The notes beneath the pieces were generated by a model. The model made no database searches, had not been told where the DNA came from, and saw nothing but the letters and a program-made list of their open reading frames with translations. From positions 162,141 through 226,140 of the forward strand of contig CAYPKD010000002.1 of the NCBI GenBank assembly GCA_964411255.1: a stretch of 64,000 nucleotides of DNA, written 5' to 3'. Below are positions 9,861 to 35,083 of the stretch, one piece after another. This DNA is from an uncultured Gammaproteobacteria bacterium (GTDB taxonomy: Bacteria; Patescibacteriota; Patescibacteriia; UBA11705; DATKZF01). Numbering within the stretch: the stretch's first letter is position 1; each line of letters begins with the position of its first letter. Position numbers and translations under genes: made by a program.

Positions 9861-10502
9861 ATGAAAAAGACAAGAAAGCTTTTTTTGTGTTCATCGAAAA
9901 TTAAAATTCTACCAGGACAAATAGTAAAAGATGAGAATGGCTTTGCTATACCCATCGAAACTTCTAATTTTAAATCACTTAATGAAAACGATATGTATAG
10001 AGTGGTTGGTTATGACGGTGATTGTTCAGTAAAAGTTGTCTCAGTTGACGAAGAGGCCGATTGCTCGACACATAATCCGTGGTGTCATGAAGATACCAAT
10101 CCGCCAGTTCGCCAGCGTATAACTAAAGATCCGGATGAATTAAGGTTTATAAGAGATGAATTAAGAGAAAAACGTCAACCTCATGTTGAGACAAAAACAT
10201 ATTCCGCTCTTATTAAAGGCAATGTAAATGTAATCGAAGGCGATAGGGTCAACATAATTGACTTTGAAGGCATTAATGGAATTGTTATCGCTGTATTAGA
10301 TGCTCTGGGCGTTTATGAAGTGATAGAAGTTGTTCAACATATTAACAAGCCGCTAATTGCCAGGCTTGTAAAAATTCAAAAGTGGAATAAAGCGCAAAGA
10401 GGCGGTCAGTATCCTGATCAGCAAGATTTAAGGGTATCAGATACTTCTTGGGTTGATGATTTCTCAAATATCAAATTTGTCCTAGAAGAAAATGATGATT
10501 AA
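9861..10502 (+). CDS. tandem-paralog family protein 3 (diverged)
   Basis: Upstream TTGTATAAT -10 and RBS AAGGAGAGGG. Shares the ITKDPDE motif and the V-N-V-I-x-GD-x-V module with paralog 4. Confidence 0.6.
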   Translation: MKKTRKLFLCSSKIKILPGQIVKDENGFAIPIETSNFKSLNENDMYRVVGYDGDCSVKVVSVDEEADCSTHNPWCHEDTNPPVRQRITKDPDELRFIRDELREKRQPHVETKTYSALIKGNVNVIEGDRVNIIDFEGINGIVIAVLDALGVYEVIEVVQHINKPLIARLVKIQKWNKAQRGGQYPDQQDLRVSDTSWVDDFSNIKFVLEENDD

Positions 10503-10711: not shown

Positions 10712-11260
10712 ATGCTAACAAAATTAAGATTTTGTAATGCAAAATTACAAATAGGCGTAGGAGATAAGGTAATAGACAGAGAGGGCTTAGCATTTCCTGT
10801 TTTGTCTGATTCGACTGAAGATAGCTTAGATGTATTAGAGGTTGTTGAAGTAAATCAAGAAAAACTGGAAGTTTTGACAAGGCCATTTACAAATTTAAAT
10901 GAAGATGCATGGGCTGAAATTTCTGGATCATATGAGATAAAAACAGATCCGGGAAATAATATTACAAAAGATCCAGCGATAGAGACAAAAGGTCATGAAG
11001 AATTTGAAGTATTGATGGCTGTAATTGATGGTGAAGTAAATGTAATCCAAGGTGATCCAGTAAGAATTGTCGGTTATCGAGCACAAGCCGGAATTGTTGA
11101 TGTGGTGCCACATCCTGAAGGAGAGTATGTTATTATTGAAATTATTGCTGAGATGTCTGTACCGCGAAAAGGCTTGTGGGTGCAAATTGAACCAGATTAT
11201 GATGATGACAATGATAATGATTTTGCAGAAAAAGTAAAAGTCAAAATTTATAATGCATGA
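10712..11260 (+). CDS. tandem-paralog family protein 4 (diverged)
   Basis: Upstream TTGTATAAT and RBS AGGAGGGAGA. Motifs NNITKDPAIETKGHEE and PEGEYVIIE. Confidence 0.6.
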   Translation: MLTKLRFCNAKLQIGVGDKVIDREGLAFPVLSDSTEDSLDVLEVVEVNQEKLEVLTRPFTNLNEDAWAEISGSYEIKTDPGNNITKDPAIETKGHEEFEVLMAVIDGEVNVIQGDPVRIVGYRAQAGIVDVVPHPEGEYVIIEIIAEMSVPRKGLWVQIEPDYDDDNDNDFAEKVKVKIYNA

Positions 11261-11575: not shown

Positions 11576-11854
11576 ATGGAATTGGCTCCAAAAGTTAAAA
11601 AATTAATTGATGAGTCAGATACTGATCAGCAAACAAAAGATTTAATGAATGAATTTTTCAAGTCAATCAGCGATGAGACTCATTATGTAAAAATAATTGA
11701 TCTGTTTGAAAGATTCCCAAGCCTTTTTGACAATTTTGTGGCTTGCTTTACTTTAAAGAAAGCATATTTTGAAAAAGGCGGAACTGAAAATGAATGGAAT
11801 GATATTTTAGCAAAGGAAGAAGATGCGCTGAATCAATTGAAAGTACAGGAATAA
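11576..11854 (+). CDS. hypothetical small acidic protein (92 aa)
   Basis: ORF apparently translationally coupled to the preceding small ORF. Confidence 0.45.
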   Translation: MELAPKVKKLIDESDTDQQTKDLMNEFFKSISDETHYVKIIDLFERFPSLFDNFVACFTLKKAYFEKGGTENEWNDILAKEEDALNQLKVQE

Positions 11855-11952
11855 TTTAGAATGTAGGCAGGAAGAAGTTTAATATAAGGGCATTATGCTC
11901 TTTTTTTGATATATATTTTATGTTTTATTATGGAGTTATCCACAGGGGATAT

Positions 11953-11980
11953 TGACTGTTCGTTTTTTGTTCGGTATAAT
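11953..11980 (+). promoter_or_regulatory. sigma70 promoter TTGACT-16-TATAAT of the lexA transcription unit
   Basis: TTGACT at 11953-11958 and TATAAT at 11975-11980. Confidence 0.6.
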
Positions 11981-12007
11981 GCCAATGAGAGTGTTCGGTA
12001 TTTGTTC
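11958..12007 (+). promoter_or_regulatory. two GTTC-N7-GTTC direct repeats (candidate LexA/SOS boxes)
   Basis: GTTCgttttttGTTC at 11958-11972 lies inside the promoter spacer. GTTCggtatttGTTC at 11993-12007 lies just downstream of the -10. The GTTC-N7-GTTC direct repeat is the described alphaproteobacterial-type SOS box. Confidence 0.4.
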
Positions 12008-12012
12008 GTAAT

Positions 12013-12478
12013 AAGCGAGATAAGCAAGACGAGCAAGAAAGCGAGACAAGTAATCCTTTAATATGGAAAATAAAAAAGAAATAAAAAGTTTTAAAGATAT
12101 TATTGTTTGGCAAAAAGCTCATCAATTGGTTCTGGAAATATATAAGATAACCAAGAATTTCCCAAGCGAAGAGCGATTTTGTTTGGTCAGTCAGATGAGA
12201 AGAGCGGTCATATCAGTAACTGCTAATATTGTTGAAGGTTTTGCCAGGAAAAAGATTTTAGAAAGTTTAAATTTTTATAATATTTCAAATGCTTCTTTAG
12301 AGGAATTAAAATATTTTATATTAATTTGTTATGATATTAATCTAATAACTAAAAATACTTATAGCAAACTATTTGAAATGAGCAAAGAGACAGGAAGGAC
12401 TTTACATGGTTGGATACAAAGTCAAAAAGTTAATGCCAACTTGTCTTGCTCGTTTCACTAGTCTTGCTTGTCTCGCTT
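12013..12478 (+). mobile_element. inverted-repeat-flanked cassette carrying a four-helix-bundle gene (MITE-like, putative)
   Basis: Left inverted repeat AAGCGAGATAAGCAAGACGAGCAAGAAAGCGAGACAAGT at 12013-12051. Right inverted repeat ACTTGTCTTGCTCGTTTCACTAGTCTTGCTTGTCTCGCTT at 12439-12478, which encodes the last 7 codons and the stop. The same repeat family recurs at 13307-13327 and as an apparently empty pair at 34994-35083. Confidence 0.35.
12063..12461 (+). CDS. four-helix-bundle protein (TIGR02436-like; 23S rRNA intervening-sequence protein family)
   Basis: WQKAHQLVLEIYKITKNFPSEERFCLVSQMRRAVISVTANIVEGFAR is typical of the family. Confidence 0.7.
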   Translation: MENKKEIKSFKDIIVWQKAHQLVLEIYKITKNFPSEERFCLVSQMRRAVISVTANIVEGFARKKILESLNFYNISNASLEELKYFILICYDINLITKNTYSKLFEMSKETGRTLHGWIQSQKVNANLSCSFH

Positions 12479-12485
12479 TAACCAT

Positions 12486-13091
12486 ATGGGAGAGCTTACA
12501 AAAAAACAATCAGAAATTTTACGCTTTATAAGTGATTATGTAAAAGAATATGATTATGCGCCAAGCTATCGGGAGATAGGGGATAATTTTAAGATTTCAT
12601 CTCCAGCTACCATTCATCAGCATATTCAAACATTAAAATCCAAAGGATTTTTAGATGTTGATGCGCAAAAAGCCAGATCTATTGAATTGACCAATAAAGT
12701 AATCAAGATGGGCAGAAGCATTGAATTGCCTTTAGTTGGTATGATTACTGCTGGACAGCCGATTGAAGCAATTGAACAAAATGAAACAATGGCCGTGCCT
12801 GCTGATTTAGTCAGAGATGAGAATTCATACATCTTAAAAGTAAAAGGAGAATCAATGATTGAAGAAGGTATTTTTAACGGTGATTTTGTGATTATTGAAA
12901 GAAACAATTATCCTCAGAATGGAGACGTAGTTGTCGCTTTATTAAATAATGCGTATGTCACTTTGAAAAAGTTTTATCGGGAAGCGACCCGCATTCGGCT
13001 GCAGCCTGCCAATTCATCTATGAAACCTATTTATTGCAAAGACGTGGCTATCAGAGGAATTGTAAAAGCTATTATTCGTAAATTTGTTTAA
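12486..13091 (+). CDS. lexA: LexA repressor (S24 peptidase)
   Basis: N-terminal wHTH, Ala-Gly cleavage site (ITAGQP), and catalytic Ser/Lys context VKGESM ... TLKKF. Alternative start at 12468 lies inside the repeat. Confidence 0.8.
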   Translation: MGELTKKQSEILRFISDYVKEYDYAPSYREIGDNFKISSPATIHQHIQTLKSKGFLDVDAQKARSIELTNKVIKMGRSIELPLVGMITAGQPIEAIEQNETMAVPADLVRDENSYILKVKGESMIEEGIFNGDFVIIERNNYPQNGDVVVALLNNAYVTLKKFYREATRIRLQPANSSMKPIYCKDVAIRGIVKAIIRKFV

Positions 13092-13338
13092 TACATAACA
13101 AGCATGGGCAGAAGAATGGGGAGGAGTAAATTAATTCATTTTAATTTCTCCCTCTCCTTGTTCTTCTGTTAACCCCAGCTTTTCTCAACCTTATGTCAAA
13201 AAGAAAAATAAAATCAATTTATCGGAAGGCTGTTGGATTTTGGAGAGATTTGACTATCAATGTTTAATTAGAGTAAGGCATGTAAAACAAGTGTGATATA
13301 TATATGGCGACTTGTCTTGCTTGTCGCATTATTTATTT

Positions 13339-13587
13339 ATGCATGAAGTAATAAATCAACCAATTGAAGTAATTGCTGCTTTTACGAGAAGTAAAATGAT
13401 TCCGTTATTTTTTAAATGGAAAAATCGTCGCTATAAAGTTAGGAAAATTAATCTTGTCCATTCAGTTCGAGAGGGCAGGAATAAAATATACTTTTTTTCA
13501 GTATCAGATGCAGTTAATTTTTTTAAGATTTGCTTTGATACTGAGAAAGGGACTTGGAAATTATTAGAACTATATTATGAAGGTTAA
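13339..13587 (+). CDS. hypothetical small protein upstream of Y-family polymerase (position analogous to YolD/UmuD-like accessory)
   Basis: ORF 13312..13587. ATG at 13339 (MHEVINQ) is the more plausible start because the upstream part is a repeat copy. The YolD analogy rests on position only. Confidence 0.35.
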   Translation: MHEVINQPIEVIAAFTRSKMIPLFFKWKNRRYKVRKINLVHSVREGRNKIYFFSVSDAVNFFKICFDTEKGTWKLLELYYEG

Positions 13588-13684
13588 AACAAAAATTTTT
13601 AAATCAAACGTTCACTTTTGGGCTGAGTTGCATGGTAAAGACTATATTTTTGATTTCGATACTGAAACATACATCCCCGCTTAG

Positions 13685-13708
13685 TTATATATAACCGGTT
13701 ATATATAA
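13685..13708. promoter_or_regulatory. 24-bp perfect palindrome TTATATATAACCGGTTATATATAA upstream of dinB
   Basis: Perfect dyad about 70 bp upstream of the dinB start. Candidate operator. Confidence 0.35.
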
Positions 13709-13776
13709 AATGTGAGACACGAAAGGCGAAAGGATTAATTTATATTTTTCCTTTCGCTTTTCTATTTTCTAATATT

Positions 13777-14985
13777 ATGAAAATAATTCTTCATATAGAC
13801 ATGAATTCGTATTTTGCTTCAGTTGAGCAGCAGGCCAATCCTTTTTTGCGTGGTAAGCCAATTGTGGTCAGCGGAAAAGAAGATTCCCGGACCGTTATTG
13901 TGGCTGCTTCGATCGAAGCTAAAAAATTTGGAATAAAAACAGCAATGAATGTTTTTGAAGCAAAAAAACTTTGCCCAAATTTATATTTTGTTCAGCCAGA
14001 TCCGCAAAAATACGCTCAGGTAACCAATTCTTTTTTTGAAATATTTAAAAGGTATAGCAGTGAGGTTGAGCTTTTTAGTATTGACGAGGCTTTTTTAGAT
14101 TTAACAAAATATGTAAAAAATTTTAATCAGGCACATATTGTTGCAAAAAAAATTAAGGAACAAATTAAAAATGAAATAGGAGAGAGGATTACTTGTTCTG
14201 TGGGCATTTCATTTAATCGTATTTTAGCAAAATTAGCTGCTAATATGAAAAAACCTGATGGTCTGGTGGTGATTGAAGAGAAAGATAAGTTAAAAGTGTT
14301 AGATTCAATAAAACCAAATGATTTATGCGGATTGGGCCCTCGTCTGGCAAAGAGGCTTAATAATTTAGGATTGGATACTTTAAGGAAAATCAGACAAGCA
14401 AATAAGCAAATAATGCTGGATGAATTTGGCCCGTATTGGGCTCCGAGATTGCAAAAAATGGCAGCTGGAGAATTAGATGAAACAATCACTCCGTATTATA
14501 AAGAAGAGCAGCTAAAGTCAGCAGGTGCTTCTTATACCTTGCCTCAAAATACTTATGATAAAAATTATCTTTATCAAATATTAATTCAGCTGGTTGAAAA
14601 AGTATGCCGTCGGCTGAGGAAAAATAATTTGAGCGCAAAAACAACCGCATATTTTTTGAGATTTGAGGATTTTACTCATTGGGGAGAAAGAAAAACCTGG
14701 ACTAATTATTTATATGATGAGGTAAATTTTTTTGAATGGGCAAAATCGCAAATTGAAAGATTAATTTTTCCCAAGGCTGTCAGATTAATTGGCTTTAGAG
14801 CAGGAAATGTGATTGAAAGTAATAATCAAATGCCTTTATTTATAAAAGAAAGGAAAAAATTTTTATTAATAAAATCCTTGGATAAAATCAATGATATTTA
14901 TGGTGAACGTACCATTTTTAGCGCAGCCATGCTGGATGTGCCCAAATTAAAAAGGCGCGCAGGAGGATTTAAATTTGAAATCTAA
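13777..14985 (+). CDS. dinB: DNA polymerase IV (Y-family, DinB/UmuC-like)
   Basis: N-terminus ILHIDMNSYFASVEQ and the palm motifs are typical of Y-family polymerases. Confidence 0.85.
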   Translation: MKIILHIDMNSYFASVEQQANPFLRGKPIVVSGKEDSRTVIVAASIEAKKFGIKTAMNVFEAKKLCPNLYFVQPDPQKYAQVTNSFFEIFKRYSSEVELFSIDEAFLDLTKYVKNFNQAHIVAKKIKEQIKNEIGERITCSVGISFNRILAKLAANMKKPDGLVVIEEKDKLKVLDSIKPNDLCGLGPRLAKRLNNLGLDTLRKIRQANKQIMLDEFGPYWAPRLQKMAAGELDETITPYYKEEQLKSAGASYTLPQNTYDKNYLYQILIQLVEKVCRRLRKNNLSAKTTAYFLRFEDFTHWGERKTWTNYLYDEVNFFEWAKSQIERLIFPKAVRLIGFRAGNVIESNNQMPLFIKERKKFLLIKSLDKINDIYGERTIFSAAMLDVPKLKRRAGGFKFEI

Positions 14986-33396: not shown

Positions 33397-33834
33397 TTAT
33401 GTGGATTTTACTGAAAACTGTGGAAGACTAGAGAGCTTTTGAATAATCCATTTACCAATACGGTATAGCACGATGCCAACTATGAACGGGGAGTGAATCA
33501 CAAATTTCCATGTATTTGCTAGAATCTTGATTGGCCAAAAGAGGATCAATAGTACTGAGTAAGTACCTCTATTTAATGATTCAACGGGGGGTGAGGGAAC
33601 ATCCTCATCATATTCGTGGCAAATATATTTTCCTTCTTTATGATTCATGTAATGGCCCGGGAAGAGAAAATATCCATACCAAACAGGTTTTAGTAATATT
33701 TCATAGCAGTCTTTTTCTACTTTTGAGCCATGCCATACTTTGATACTATATTTGAGAAGAAATCGGCCAATTTGATAATATACTGTTGCAGCACCAATAA
33801 TTACAAGTATGATTTCAATGAAAGATCTTTCCAC
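33397..33834 (-). CDS. tandem-paralog membrane protein C (diverged)
   Basis: Related to 33938..34360 and 34465..34923 (IGYL/IGRFL ... WH ... WP(I/M)K(I/V)L). Confidence 0.5.
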   Translation of the reverse strand: MERSFIEIILVIIGAATVYYQIGRFLLKYSIKVWHGSKVEKDCYEILLKPVWYGYFLFPGHYMNHKEGKYICHEYDEDVPSPPVESLNRGTYSVLLILFWPIKILANTWKFVIHSPFIVGIVLYRIGKWIIQKLSSLPQFSVKST

Positions 33835-33919
33835 TTTTGCCTCCTTGCTGGGGGTGGGGGAAGAAACATTTCAATATATTACTTAAAAAAATAATTTTTG
33901 TCAAGAAATAAAAAATCCC

Positions 33920-33945
33920 TGGTTTTGAACCAAGGGATTATGCAG
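33920..33945 (-). terminator. terminator module AATCCCTGGTTTTGAACCAAGGGATT (copy 1)
   Basis: Palindromic hairpin. The minus strand is followed by TTTTTATTTCTTGACAAAAATT. An identical module lies at 34441-34466. Confidence 0.6.
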
Positions 33946-34360
33946 AGTTTATTCTGAAGATTTTTCTTATCGGCAGAGTAAAAAGCTTTCCAATTTGAAT
34001 TATCAATAAAGCAACACCGTAAATGATAGCTATGGGAAGGCCAATACCTATCAGACCAGATGTATTAAACAATACCTTTATTGGCCACGAAAGCATCATC
34101 GCTCGTTTGTATTGTCTTTCATTCATTAGATCTATTGGCACACCAGGAGCAATAGCAATTGAGAATGATATTGGAAATATTAGATAAACATACCAATATT
34201 TTGTAATTTTGCGTTTATAATCAGAGTTGTTAATATTCTTATTGCTGATGACATTATGCCAGGTTTTCCAGCTGATATGCGCAAACAGGTAGCCTATATT
34301 GCAATAAATGAAAAGACTTATAAATATTACCAATACCCAAGTCATAGTTGATAGTTCCAT
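33938..34360 (-). CDS. tandem-paralog membrane protein B
   Basis: About 60% identical to 34465..34923 (CNIGYLFAHISWKTWHN). Confidence 0.55.
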   Translation of the reverse strand: MELSTMTWVLVIFISLFIYCNIGYLFAHISWKTWHNVISNKNINNSDYKRKITKYWYVYLIFPISFSIAIAPGVPIDLMNERQYKRAMMLSWPIKVLFNTSGLIGIGLPIAIIYGVALLIIQIGKLFTLPIRKIFRINSA

Positions 34361-34440
34361 TTATAACCCCCTAATTGTTGTTGTGAAAGGACTAATTATT
34401 ATACTTTACAGGTAATACGAATTTTTGTCAAGAAATAAAA

Positions 34441-34466
34441 AATCCCTGGTTTTGAACCAAGGGATT
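34441..34466 (-). terminator. terminator module AATCCCTGGTTTTGAACCAAGGGATT (copy 2)
   Basis: Identical to copy 1. Overlaps the stop of 34465..34923. Confidence 0.6.
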
Positions 34467-34923
34467 ATACTGAATTAATTTTGAATAATTTCTTTACAGG
34501 TAGAGTGAAAAGTTTTCCGATTTGGATTGCGAGTAACCCAATGACATAGCCAATAGCTATAGGAATTCCTAATAACCATATTATAGTCCCAATATTTTGA
34601 CAAATGATTATTGTTAATGAAAGAATATTATATATTATTTTCATTGGCCACAAGAACATCATCATTCGCTTGTATTGTTTTTCTTTCATTCCATCTATTG
34701 GCACTTCTTCACCACCGCATTCATAGAATGACATAGGGAATATCAGATAAGCATACCAATATTTCGTGATTTTGCGCTTATTATTAAAGTAGTTAATCTT
34801 CTTGTTGAGGATGATATTGTGCCAGGTTTTCCAGCTAATATGAGCGAGTAGATAGCCAATGTTGCAATAAACAAATACGATGCATATAATTATTAATGTC
34901 CAAGCACTTGCAGATATTTCCAT
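34465..34923 (-). CDS. tandem-paralog membrane protein A
   Basis: CNIGYLLAHISWKTWHN. 3-4 TM segments. Confidence 0.55.
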   Translation of the reverse strand: MEISASAWTLIIICIVFVYCNIGYLLAHISWKTWHNIILNKKINYFNNKRKITKYWYAYLIFPMSFYECGGEEVPIDGMKEKQYKRMMMFLWPMKIIYNILSLTIIICQNIGTIIWLLGIPIAIGYVIGLLAIQIGKLFTLPVKKLFKINSV

Positions 34924-34993: not shown

Positions 34994-35083
34994 GATAAGC
35001 AAGACAAACGAGACAAGTGAAATATGTAAAAGAATTGGAGACTTGTCTTGCTCGTCTTGCTCGTTTAACTTGTCTTGCTTATA
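34994..35083. repeat. apparently empty inverted-repeat pair of the AGCAAGACAAGT / ACTTGTCTTGCT cassette family (MITE-like)
   Basis: Left GATAAGCAAGACAAACGAGACAAGTGA and right GACTTGTCTTGCTCGTCTTGCTCGTTTAACTTGTCTTGCTTAT are separated by only 20 bp. Lies immediately upstream of the manC-like start. Confidence 0.5.

Follow-up and report, generated by a model that had tools for sequence, protein, structure and literature searches.

A probable intervening-sequence-type cassette with a four-helix-bundle gene in the lexA leader of a patescibacterial genome

We examined a stretch of 64,000 nucleotides from an uncultured member of the Patescibacteriota (contig CAYPKD010000002.1; the whole stretch is hereafter called the window), in which a gene for a four-helix-bundle (4HB) protein, enclosed by long inverted repeats, lies directly upstream of lexA. 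The window is AT-rich (34% GC), and homologues of its proteins carry annotations as Parcubacteria, Patescibacteria and similar groups. The 4HB gene (12063-12461, + strand) encodes a protein of 132 aa in the family PF05635 / TIGR02436, '23S rRNA intervening sequence protein'. This protein scored 119.2 bits against PF05635 (E 1.2e-34; gathering score 33.8) and 110.7 bits against TIGR02436 ('four helix bundle protein'; cut-off 24), and thus belongs to both families. Comparison with solved members by phmmer returned PDB 2GSC (E 6.6e-13) and 2RLD (E 4e-4), a relationship of sequence only; both structures contain five chains. The protein also matched the Avd-type family PF22296 (E 4.6e-13). Identity with Avd, the accessory protein of diversity-generating retroelements (DGRs), was rejected: the score against NF033474 was 54.9 bits, below the cut-off of 80, and neither a reverse transcriptase nor template/variable (TR/VR) repeats adjoin the gene. 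Its neighbours are a 92-aa gene and lexA (12486-13091, + strand; 201 aa from the ATG, with PF01726 and PF00717), whose start codon was placed by alignment of orthologues. Rfam at gathering score found one tRNA only in the window, so the 4HB gene and its flanking repeats do not lie inside 23S or 16S rRNA. At E <= 1 over 11850-13450, the only Rfam results were two chance miRNA-like matches on a hairpin after lexA.

The repeats are arrays of short tandem words. The left arm (12013-12053, + strand) consists of four purine-rich 9-nt words with a period of 9, AAGCGAGAT AAGCAAGAC GAGCAAGAA AGCGAGACA AGT, and therefore shows the tandem purine-rich repeats between 5' end and start of the open reading frame (ORF) that are a feature of Coxiella's intervening sequence (IVS). 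The right arm (12439-12478, + strand) is built of complementary pyrimidine-rich words, ACTTGTCTTGCT CGTTTCACT AGTCTTGCT TGTCTCGCTT, and ends 7 nt before the lexA ATG. The word consensus is RAGCRAGAC and its complement. Paired as RNA, the two arms form a duplex of -50.5 kcal/mol, compared with -19.9 ± 4.1 kcal/mol (best -37.6) for 300 shuffles, and complementary termini, one of the features by which IVSs are recognised, thus enclose the element. In folds of a 496-nt RNA the long-range arm stem closes the ORF in both the minimum free energy and the centroid structure (z -4.1). An earlier reading of this DNA from its letters alone (the sequence-only reading) had described a TIGR02436-like gene bracketed by inverted repeats of about 40 bp, the right one encoding the last seven codons; both descriptions were borne out, the right arm covering the codons N-L-S-C-S-F-H and the stop of the 4HB gene.

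The words are concentrated at few places. Allowing at most one mismatch, ACTTGTCTTGCT occurs 6 times against 0.38 expected, a number reached by none of 100 shuffles. Core 7-mers in the 64 kb lie almost entirely at three loci (the lexA cassette, 13310-13327 and 34995-35082), and isolated single 7-mer matches elsewhere in the window numbered three (27931, 48067 and 55020). Right arms contain one conserved odd word (GTTTCACT, GTTTTACT or GTTTAACT; 12452-12459 and 35058-35066 in the window) that pairs imperfectly with left-arm GCAAGAAAG. It is kept in ORF-bearing and ORF-less copies alike, in the window and in the related loci L006, L007, L008, L032 and L171, which suggests a specific site inside the stem.

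Upstream of the left arm lies a sigma-70-type promoter, TTGACT-17-TATAAT (11952-11980, + strand), which matches at 11/12 positions and is the best match in 11800-13800. Two direct-repeat GTTC-N7-GTTC boxes, the only two matches in the window, lie on the + strand in the promoter spacer (11958-11972) and downstream of it (11993-12007). A direct repeat of this type, not a palindrome, is the LexA box of Alphaproteobacteria; from this likeness and from their position, the boxes are presumed to be LexA operators. Related lexA loci retain both boxes; several close relatives have the second one in reverse orientation (L008, L009, L091 and L093 were examined). A terminator-like site at 11886-11902 closes the previous upstream gene, and none was found between the 4HB gene and lexA in a scan of 11800-13800. 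Because the SOS-type promoter holds the window's only two such boxes and no terminator precedes lexA, the 4HB gene and lexA are likely to be co-transcribed from it. The cassette thus lies between an SOS-type promoter and lexA, where the sequence-only reading had placed it.

Two further copies of the words lie in the window, each in front of another gene. An ORF-less hairpin built of lexA-cassette words (34995-35082, + strand) has a left arm at 34995-35017, a loop of 20 nt and a longer right arm at 35041-35082; it folds with -28.7 kcal/mol (z -3.7) and ends 7 nt before the ATG of manC (35090). This is the close pair that had been reported at 34994-35083. The second copy is an insert of about 70 nt (13268-13338, + strand) between a 24-aa ORF, MSKRKIKSIYRKAVGFWRDLTINV (13193-13267, + strand), and an 82-aa gene (13339-13587, + strand) downstream of lexA, with the gene for a Y-family polymerase (Pol IV; 13777-14985, by Pfam match) beyond. 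It contains right-arm-type words at 13310-13327, reported earlier as a solo copy at 13307-13327, and a left-type word, AAAACAAGT, about 25 nt upstream of these, and is probably a decayed hairpin or cassette. All the elements listed in the sequence-only reading were found in place or within a few bases.

The architecture seen at lexA recurs in PF05635 genes of many phyla. We surveyed 80 such genes, picked by protein similarity only, from Patescibacteria, Bacteroidota, Planctomycetota, Elusimicrobiota, WOR-3, Nitrospirota, an ANME-1 archaeon and others; 245 other ORFs of the same loci served as controls. Flank duplexes were scored as z, and raw energy was dropped as confounded by GC content (18% of controls reached -40 kcal/mol or below). 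In most loci a purine-rich tandem-word array lies upstream of the gene and a complementary array at its 3' end. A flank duplex with z <= -3 was found for 54% of the PF05635 genes and 3.7% of the controls, and one with z <= -4 for 36% and 0.8%, respectively; the figure of 54% is an underestimate, since AU-rich arms such as those of L072 score low though obvious by eye. The left flank was periodic (match >= 0.75) in 46% of PF05635 genes and 8% of controls. Word periods were 7, 9 or 8 and were identical in both arms at all 15 scorable loci, and the left arm was purine-rich in 28/37 loci. The words differ entirely between loci, yet each left arm tends to fit its own right arm, which ranked first among 86 candidate partners in 24 loci and within the top 3 in 40. 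Within one genome, cassettes whose proteins are 82% identical share words; those with proteins at 32-45% identity do not. Words in a genome thus follow cassette lineage, not genome, a distribution that is consistent with a structure-specific processor and a poor fit to a single transposase recognising fixed ends.

None of the 79 survey loci scanned with Rfam placed the cassette inside rRNA. At 4 of the 79 the cassette lies directly beside one or two tRNA genes (L048, 239-716; L054, 2384-3414; L055, 2848-3402; L060, 2783-3372), and would there be inside another heavily processed stable-RNA transcript. Cassettes leave little space to the genes on either side (median gaps: upstream 56 nt, downstream 39 nt). 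Their orientation is not distinctive: 87% are co-oriented with the upstream and 83% with the downstream neighbour, against a baseline of 80%. The one strong outlier among the controls was a 139-aa ORF in L050 (4378-4797, + strand) with no Pfam match and no detectable 4HB similarity, which is enclosed by arms of CGCGTAA words (-64.9 kcal/mol, z -11.8); judging from this ORF, the stem module may carry other cargo. On one Magasanikbacteria contig (L019), three 4HB cassettes lie within 5.5 kb, each with word arms of its own and one with an ORF truncated to 38 aa, a pattern that suggests local duplication and decay.

To follow the cassette at orthologous sites, related lexA loci were compared. A scan of metagenomes by LexA alignment returned 80 lexA loci, of which 5 have a 4HB gene upstream of lexA and 1 has it downstream. 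This sporadic distribution, another feature by which IVSs are recognised, includes one empty locus nested in the bearing clade. That locus, L091, has a LexA 90% identical to that of the window and shares the DnaA-box-like motif, the promoter and both boxes, but only about 25 nt then separate these from lexA, and nothing of the cassette is present there. In bootstrapped neighbour-joining trees L091 grouped with four cassette-bearing lexA sequences in 100% of replicates and fell outside the bearers in 0/200. Because it nests with the bearers, its empty leader is most simply explained as a clean loss of the cassette. About 150 nt further upstream in L091 (2035-2075), between the stop of the 92-aa gene and its terminator, the same words form a left-type array with no second arm, GCGACAAGCAAGACGAGCAAGACAAGTAAAACAAGTAA. 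The leader is also empty in L093, L094 and L168 (LexA about 70% identical). In L092 four right-type heptamers (CTACTCA) precede lexA, and the leaders of L095 to L101 contain unrelated hairpins or small ORFs, that of L095 a small ORF and a hairpin.

The two other sites vary in the same manner. L007, L008, L009 and L091 all keep the 24-aa ORF. At the junction before the 82-aa gene, L007 has no insert (TAA-TT-ATG), L008 an ORF-less hairpin made of AAGGCGA/GCCTT words, L009 a decayed 4HB pseudogene of about 410 nt with different flanking words (GGTAG/CTACC), and L091 an unrelated 79-aa ORF. The junction after the stop of the 24-aa ORF is a hot spot, with four different inserts in four relatives. 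The manC leader has an orthologous hairpin of the same words in L171, a locus from the same sample as L007, where about 3 left and about 9 right words stand directly before manC; in L172, L173 and L174 the leader has no hairpin. Occupied and empty orthologous sites, a trait of miniature inverted-repeat transposable elements (MITEs), were thus found at all three loci (lexA leader, 82-aa-gene junction and manC leader) when sites with and without the insertion were compared, as the sequence-only reading had advised. Its other proposed check, for target-site duplications, came out negative: none was consistent across the boundaries in the window, L006, L007, L008 and L009, whose flanks are AT-rich and diverged, so that a duplication of 2-3 bp may have escaped notice. 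As that reading had noted for the window, no transposase was seen, and none adjoined any of the 86 cassettes inspected. Fixed terminal inverted repeats, by which MITEs are recognised, were absent from the copies compared: word number and sequence differ between copies. Related 4HB proteins with the same word family were also found in front of recQ (L012) and in the interval from dnaB to recR (L032). No SOS box was found before the recQ cassette of L012, and the repair-gene neighbours lexA, recQ and recR may therefore be coincidence.

At lexA itself the cassette has been in place for a long time. The four closest homologues of the 4HB protein (88, 80, 69 and 67% identical) are all encoded immediately upstream of lexA in other assemblies (L006 to L010), in cassettes with arms of the same words and strong duplexes. 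Between the nearer pairs, synonymous divergence (dS) was 0.75-1.1 for the 4HB gene and 1.1-1.2 for lexA. Because the closest homologues all precede lexA and the dS of the 4HB gene is about that of lexA, the comparisons indicate that the lexA cassette is an old, vertically inherited resident in this lineage, not a recent insertion. For the 4HB gene the ratio of nonsynonymous to synonymous divergence (dN/dS) was 0.07-0.11, compared with 0.05-0.06 for lexA. The left-arm core is nearly identical in L006 and L007 despite synonymous sites near saturation, and alignments of related leaders showed the cores of both arms to be almost unchanged at the level of divergence of the 4HB gene and lexA. These patterns indicate that both the protein and the arms are under selection in this lineage, in the case of the protein purifying selection. 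A neighbour-joining tree placed lexA-linked 4HB proteins in at least 4 groups (the tree is built on about 120 aa and is poorly resolved); for the distant lexA-linked clades, independent capture and ancient linkage with losses are both compatible with the tree.

Comparison across loci supports the view that the cassette, arms and gene together, is the unit of descent: it appears to be gained, to decay to ORF-less hairpins or single arms, and to be lost cleanly. Its ends, as far as the aligned copies indicate, are defined by structure rather than by sequence, and the element is therefore not a classical transposase-driven MITE. The sequence-only reading had proposed a small mobile cassette family. 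A unit of gene and arms with ORF-less, degenerate and empty forms agrees with that proposal; recent insertion at lexA and a MITE-like mechanism are not supported.

We consider it probable, with some reserve, that the element at lexA is an IVS-type cassette in an mRNA leader, that is, a PF05635/TIGR02436 gene in the loop of a stem built of words. Transcription from the LexA-controlled promoter would place the cassette at the front of the lexA transcript. Before any processing, the two arms would form a duplex of about 35-40 bp, from just behind the second LexA box to 7 nt short of the start codon of lexA. As for the homologous 23S rRNA cassettes, this duplex may be a substrate of RNase III, which would cut the 4HB segment off the lexA mRNA without religation and release a separate lexA mRNA. 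Such cutting would leave an insertion in the transcription unit harmless to the downstream gene. If this is correct, the 5' portion of the transcript that expresses lexA would be a processed cassette.

Several points weigh against this interpretation. We infer each of its steps, from co-transcription and formation of the stem to cleavage by RNase III. Folded as RNA, the stem is about equally stable on both strands (45 vs 35 loci of 80; Wilcoxon p 0.087), so that G:U asymmetry offers no way to tell an RNA stem from an inverted repeat acting at the DNA level; a raw excess of G:U over A.C mismatches was set aside because it is biased by the folding algorithm. RNase III needs a duplex only, so that the tandem words are left without a reason, as are the purine-rich polarity of the left arm and the odd word GTTTYACT that the right arms of the subfamily conserve. 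Nor does the interpretation give a role to the strongly conserved 4HB protein. No RNase III was found among the seven window ORFs of 222-249 aa that were scanned, a result uninformative for the rest of the genome, as no systematic search for rnc was made.

Three other explanations were weighed. The arms could be terminal inverted repeats that are recognised by a transposase whose gene lies elsewhere, as in MITEs or in REPINs (paired repetitive extragenic palindromic, or REP, sequences), with 34995-35082 as the minimal non-autonomous form and the 4HB gene as a passenger. Presence and absence at three orthologous sites, the existence of ORF-less and one-armed forms, one word family before lexA, recQ and recR in different genomes, and the clean loss in L091 would all suit such a DNA element. 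However, its ends would have to be variable, with 3 left against about 9 right words in L171, different cassettes of one genome bear unrelated words, and neither a consistent target-site duplication in the five loci compared nor a transposase beside any inspected cassette was found. The supposed cargo, moreover, always belongs to one family, is under purifying selection and has been inherited vertically with lexA over a long time. We regard this explanation as unlikely. Even less can be said for local mRNA structure of the ordinary kind, for instance an attenuator or a stabilising hairpin, or for slippage-prone simple repeats unrelated to the enclosed gene. Small hairpins are common in AT-rich intergenic regions, and the lexA leader of relatives is variable, with the unrelated hairpins and small ORFs of L095 to L101; but the arms are specific to PF05635 genes (54% vs 3.7% of controls), co-vary across phyla, lie about 400 nt apart, and are not followed by a T-tract on the right. 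This explanation is hardly credible.

The word arrays might instead be binding sites of the 4HB protein or of a partner, forming an autoregulated ribonucleoprotein module whose ORF-less copies are targets in trans, in effect an SOS-induced post-transcriptional regulon. Words do track protein similarity, being shared at 82% identity and different at 32-45% in the same genome, but common descent of arms and gene explains this correlation equally well. Both in the window and in the L007/L171 genome, the copies that lack an ORF are made of the resident lexA cassette's words and stop 7-9 nt short of start codons; against this, the second-site elements of L008 and L009 use words other than those of their resident lexA cassettes. 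A tandem array would suit an oligomeric binder, as the five chains each of PDB 2GSC and 2RLD allow, Avd, a homologue, forms a barrel that contacts RNA within the DGR ribonucleoprotein (bioRxiv 10.1101/2023.10.23.563531), and the arms are conserved well beyond neutral expectation. Nevertheless, specificity for nucleic-acid sequence is not established in the PF05635 family, the Coxiella protein is apparently not made (PMC4990558), and binding of this kind is not needed to explain the data. We regard this explanation, too, as unlikely. A still bolder version would join it to the IVS-type interpretation: PF05635 genes and word-array stems would be widespread, self-contained RNA-level cassettes ('mRNA intervening sequences') whose oligomeric protein binds the words of its own stem, as Avd does on DGR RNA, and so drives processing, maintenance or spread. 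In this CPR lineage the lexA operon would have recruited one such cassette as its first gene, and the ORF-less copies that stand 7-9 nt ahead of the start codons of manC and the 82-aa/Pol IV unit would be that cassette's trans targets in an SOS-induced post-transcriptional regulon. This we offer as a long shot.

Some features of the window lie outside the cassette. Just upstream of the -35 element is TTATCCACA (11936-11944, + strand), which we take to be a perfect match to the DnaA-box consensus. It is invariant in an alignment of six related lexA leaders and is present, sometimes inverted, in most other lexA loci of the candidate phyla radiation (CPR) that were fetched, which hints at a link of replication initiation control to the SOS response in this clade. 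Further upstream, two adjoining genes (9861-10502, 213 aa; 10712-11260, 182 aa) share a conserved C-terminal segment, …VNVI[EQ]GD.V.I…G[IY]…VIE[IV][IV]…; the 213-aa gene, the one of the pair that was tested, had no Pfam match. Small genes resembling this pair also precede lexA in L009 and L010. Between bacA and manC, three tandem paralogous genes for small membrane proteins (145, 140 and 152 aa) occupy 33397-34923 on the - strand; the one tested had no Pfam match. In the relatives L171 to L174, manC follows bacA directly, without these genes between them.

The origin and spread of 23S rRNA IVSs and their 'S23p' ORFs, and the function of the protein, have been unsettled since about 1990, and PF05635/TIGR02436 proteins, very common in bacterial genomes, are annotated merely as 'four helix bundle protein'. 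The main value of the present finding is that PF05635 genes typically sit in IVS-type word stems outside rRNA. On this evidence the rRNA IVS is a special case of a general module, a PF05635 gene inside a stem of tandem 7-9-nt words, for which rRNA is not the usual host. Across many phyla we found the module in ordinary operons, beside tRNA genes and in regulatory leaders. In the literature searched, which did not cover most subscription journals, we found no description of cassettes of this kind outside rRNA; a prior description may exist. The word-stem signature allows such cassettes and their ORF-less derivatives to be found, and the idea of RNase III 'excision without religation' becomes testable on mRNAs. 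Three natural series of presence and absence, at SOS and cell-envelope genes of CPR bacteria, are available for tracing cassette movement.

Among known systems, MITEs and REPINs resemble the element in their inverted repeats, intergenic position, presence or absence between relatives and non-coding forms. Unlike them, it showed no target-site duplication, fixed terminus, cognate transposase or RAYT (REP-associated tyrosine transposase), and its long form always carries the same gene family. A second likeness is to the Avd protein of DGRs, which belongs to a homologous four-helix-bundle fold family and works within a ribonucleoprotein with structured RNA (bioRxiv 10.1101/2023.10.23.563531). Unlike Avd, the lexA-cassette protein falls below the NCBIfam cut-off (54.9 vs 80) and has no reverse transcriptase or template/variable repeats beside it. 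The short tandemly repeated repetitive (STRR) sequences of cyanobacteria, tandem 7-nt words in the intergenic DNA of genomes rich in PF05635 genes, offer a further lead; our sample included no cyanobacterial locus. Enterobacterial 23S rRNA of the Salmonella type contains short ORF-less IVSs of about 100 nt. Like these, the elements at 34995-35082 and in L171 are ORF-less extended stem-loops of about 90-130 nt, and 34995-35082 resembles the ORF-bearing form with the ORF removed. Unlike the Salmonella type, it occupies the manC 5' leader, consists of tandem words and has arms of unequal length.

The closest likeness is to the ORF-bearing 23S rRNA IVSs of Coxiella burnetii (helix 45) and Leptospira, which have the same protein family in the loop of an extended stem and a sporadic distribution that likewise suggests gain and loss. 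The Coxiella IVS measures 428-444 nt, with an S23p (PF05635) ORF in the loop; two to three tandem purine-rich GACAGAT heptamers, their number varying with strain, precede the start codon, and its complementary termini form an extended stem that RNase III cuts (PMC4990558). Mobility of IVSs and involvement of their ORFs in it have long been suspected (cited in PMC4990558), and ORFs of the 23S_rRNA_IVP type are present in 16S and 23S rRNA insertions of CPR bacteria (PMC11270868). The lexA cassette, at 466 nt, is of similar size and has purine-rich tandem repeats of variable number directly upstream of the start codon. It differs in its host, an mRNA leader and not an rRNA helix; in its 9-mer words and its stem of about 40 bp against 28 bp; and in its gene, which is under purifying selection whereas that of Coxiella is decaying. 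RNase III cleavage has been shown for the Coxiella IVS and is proposed for the lexA cassette by analogy. In its anatomy the cassette is nonetheless closer to the IVS class than to MITEs, and the link to 23S rRNA intervening sequences drawn in the sequence-only reading held up.

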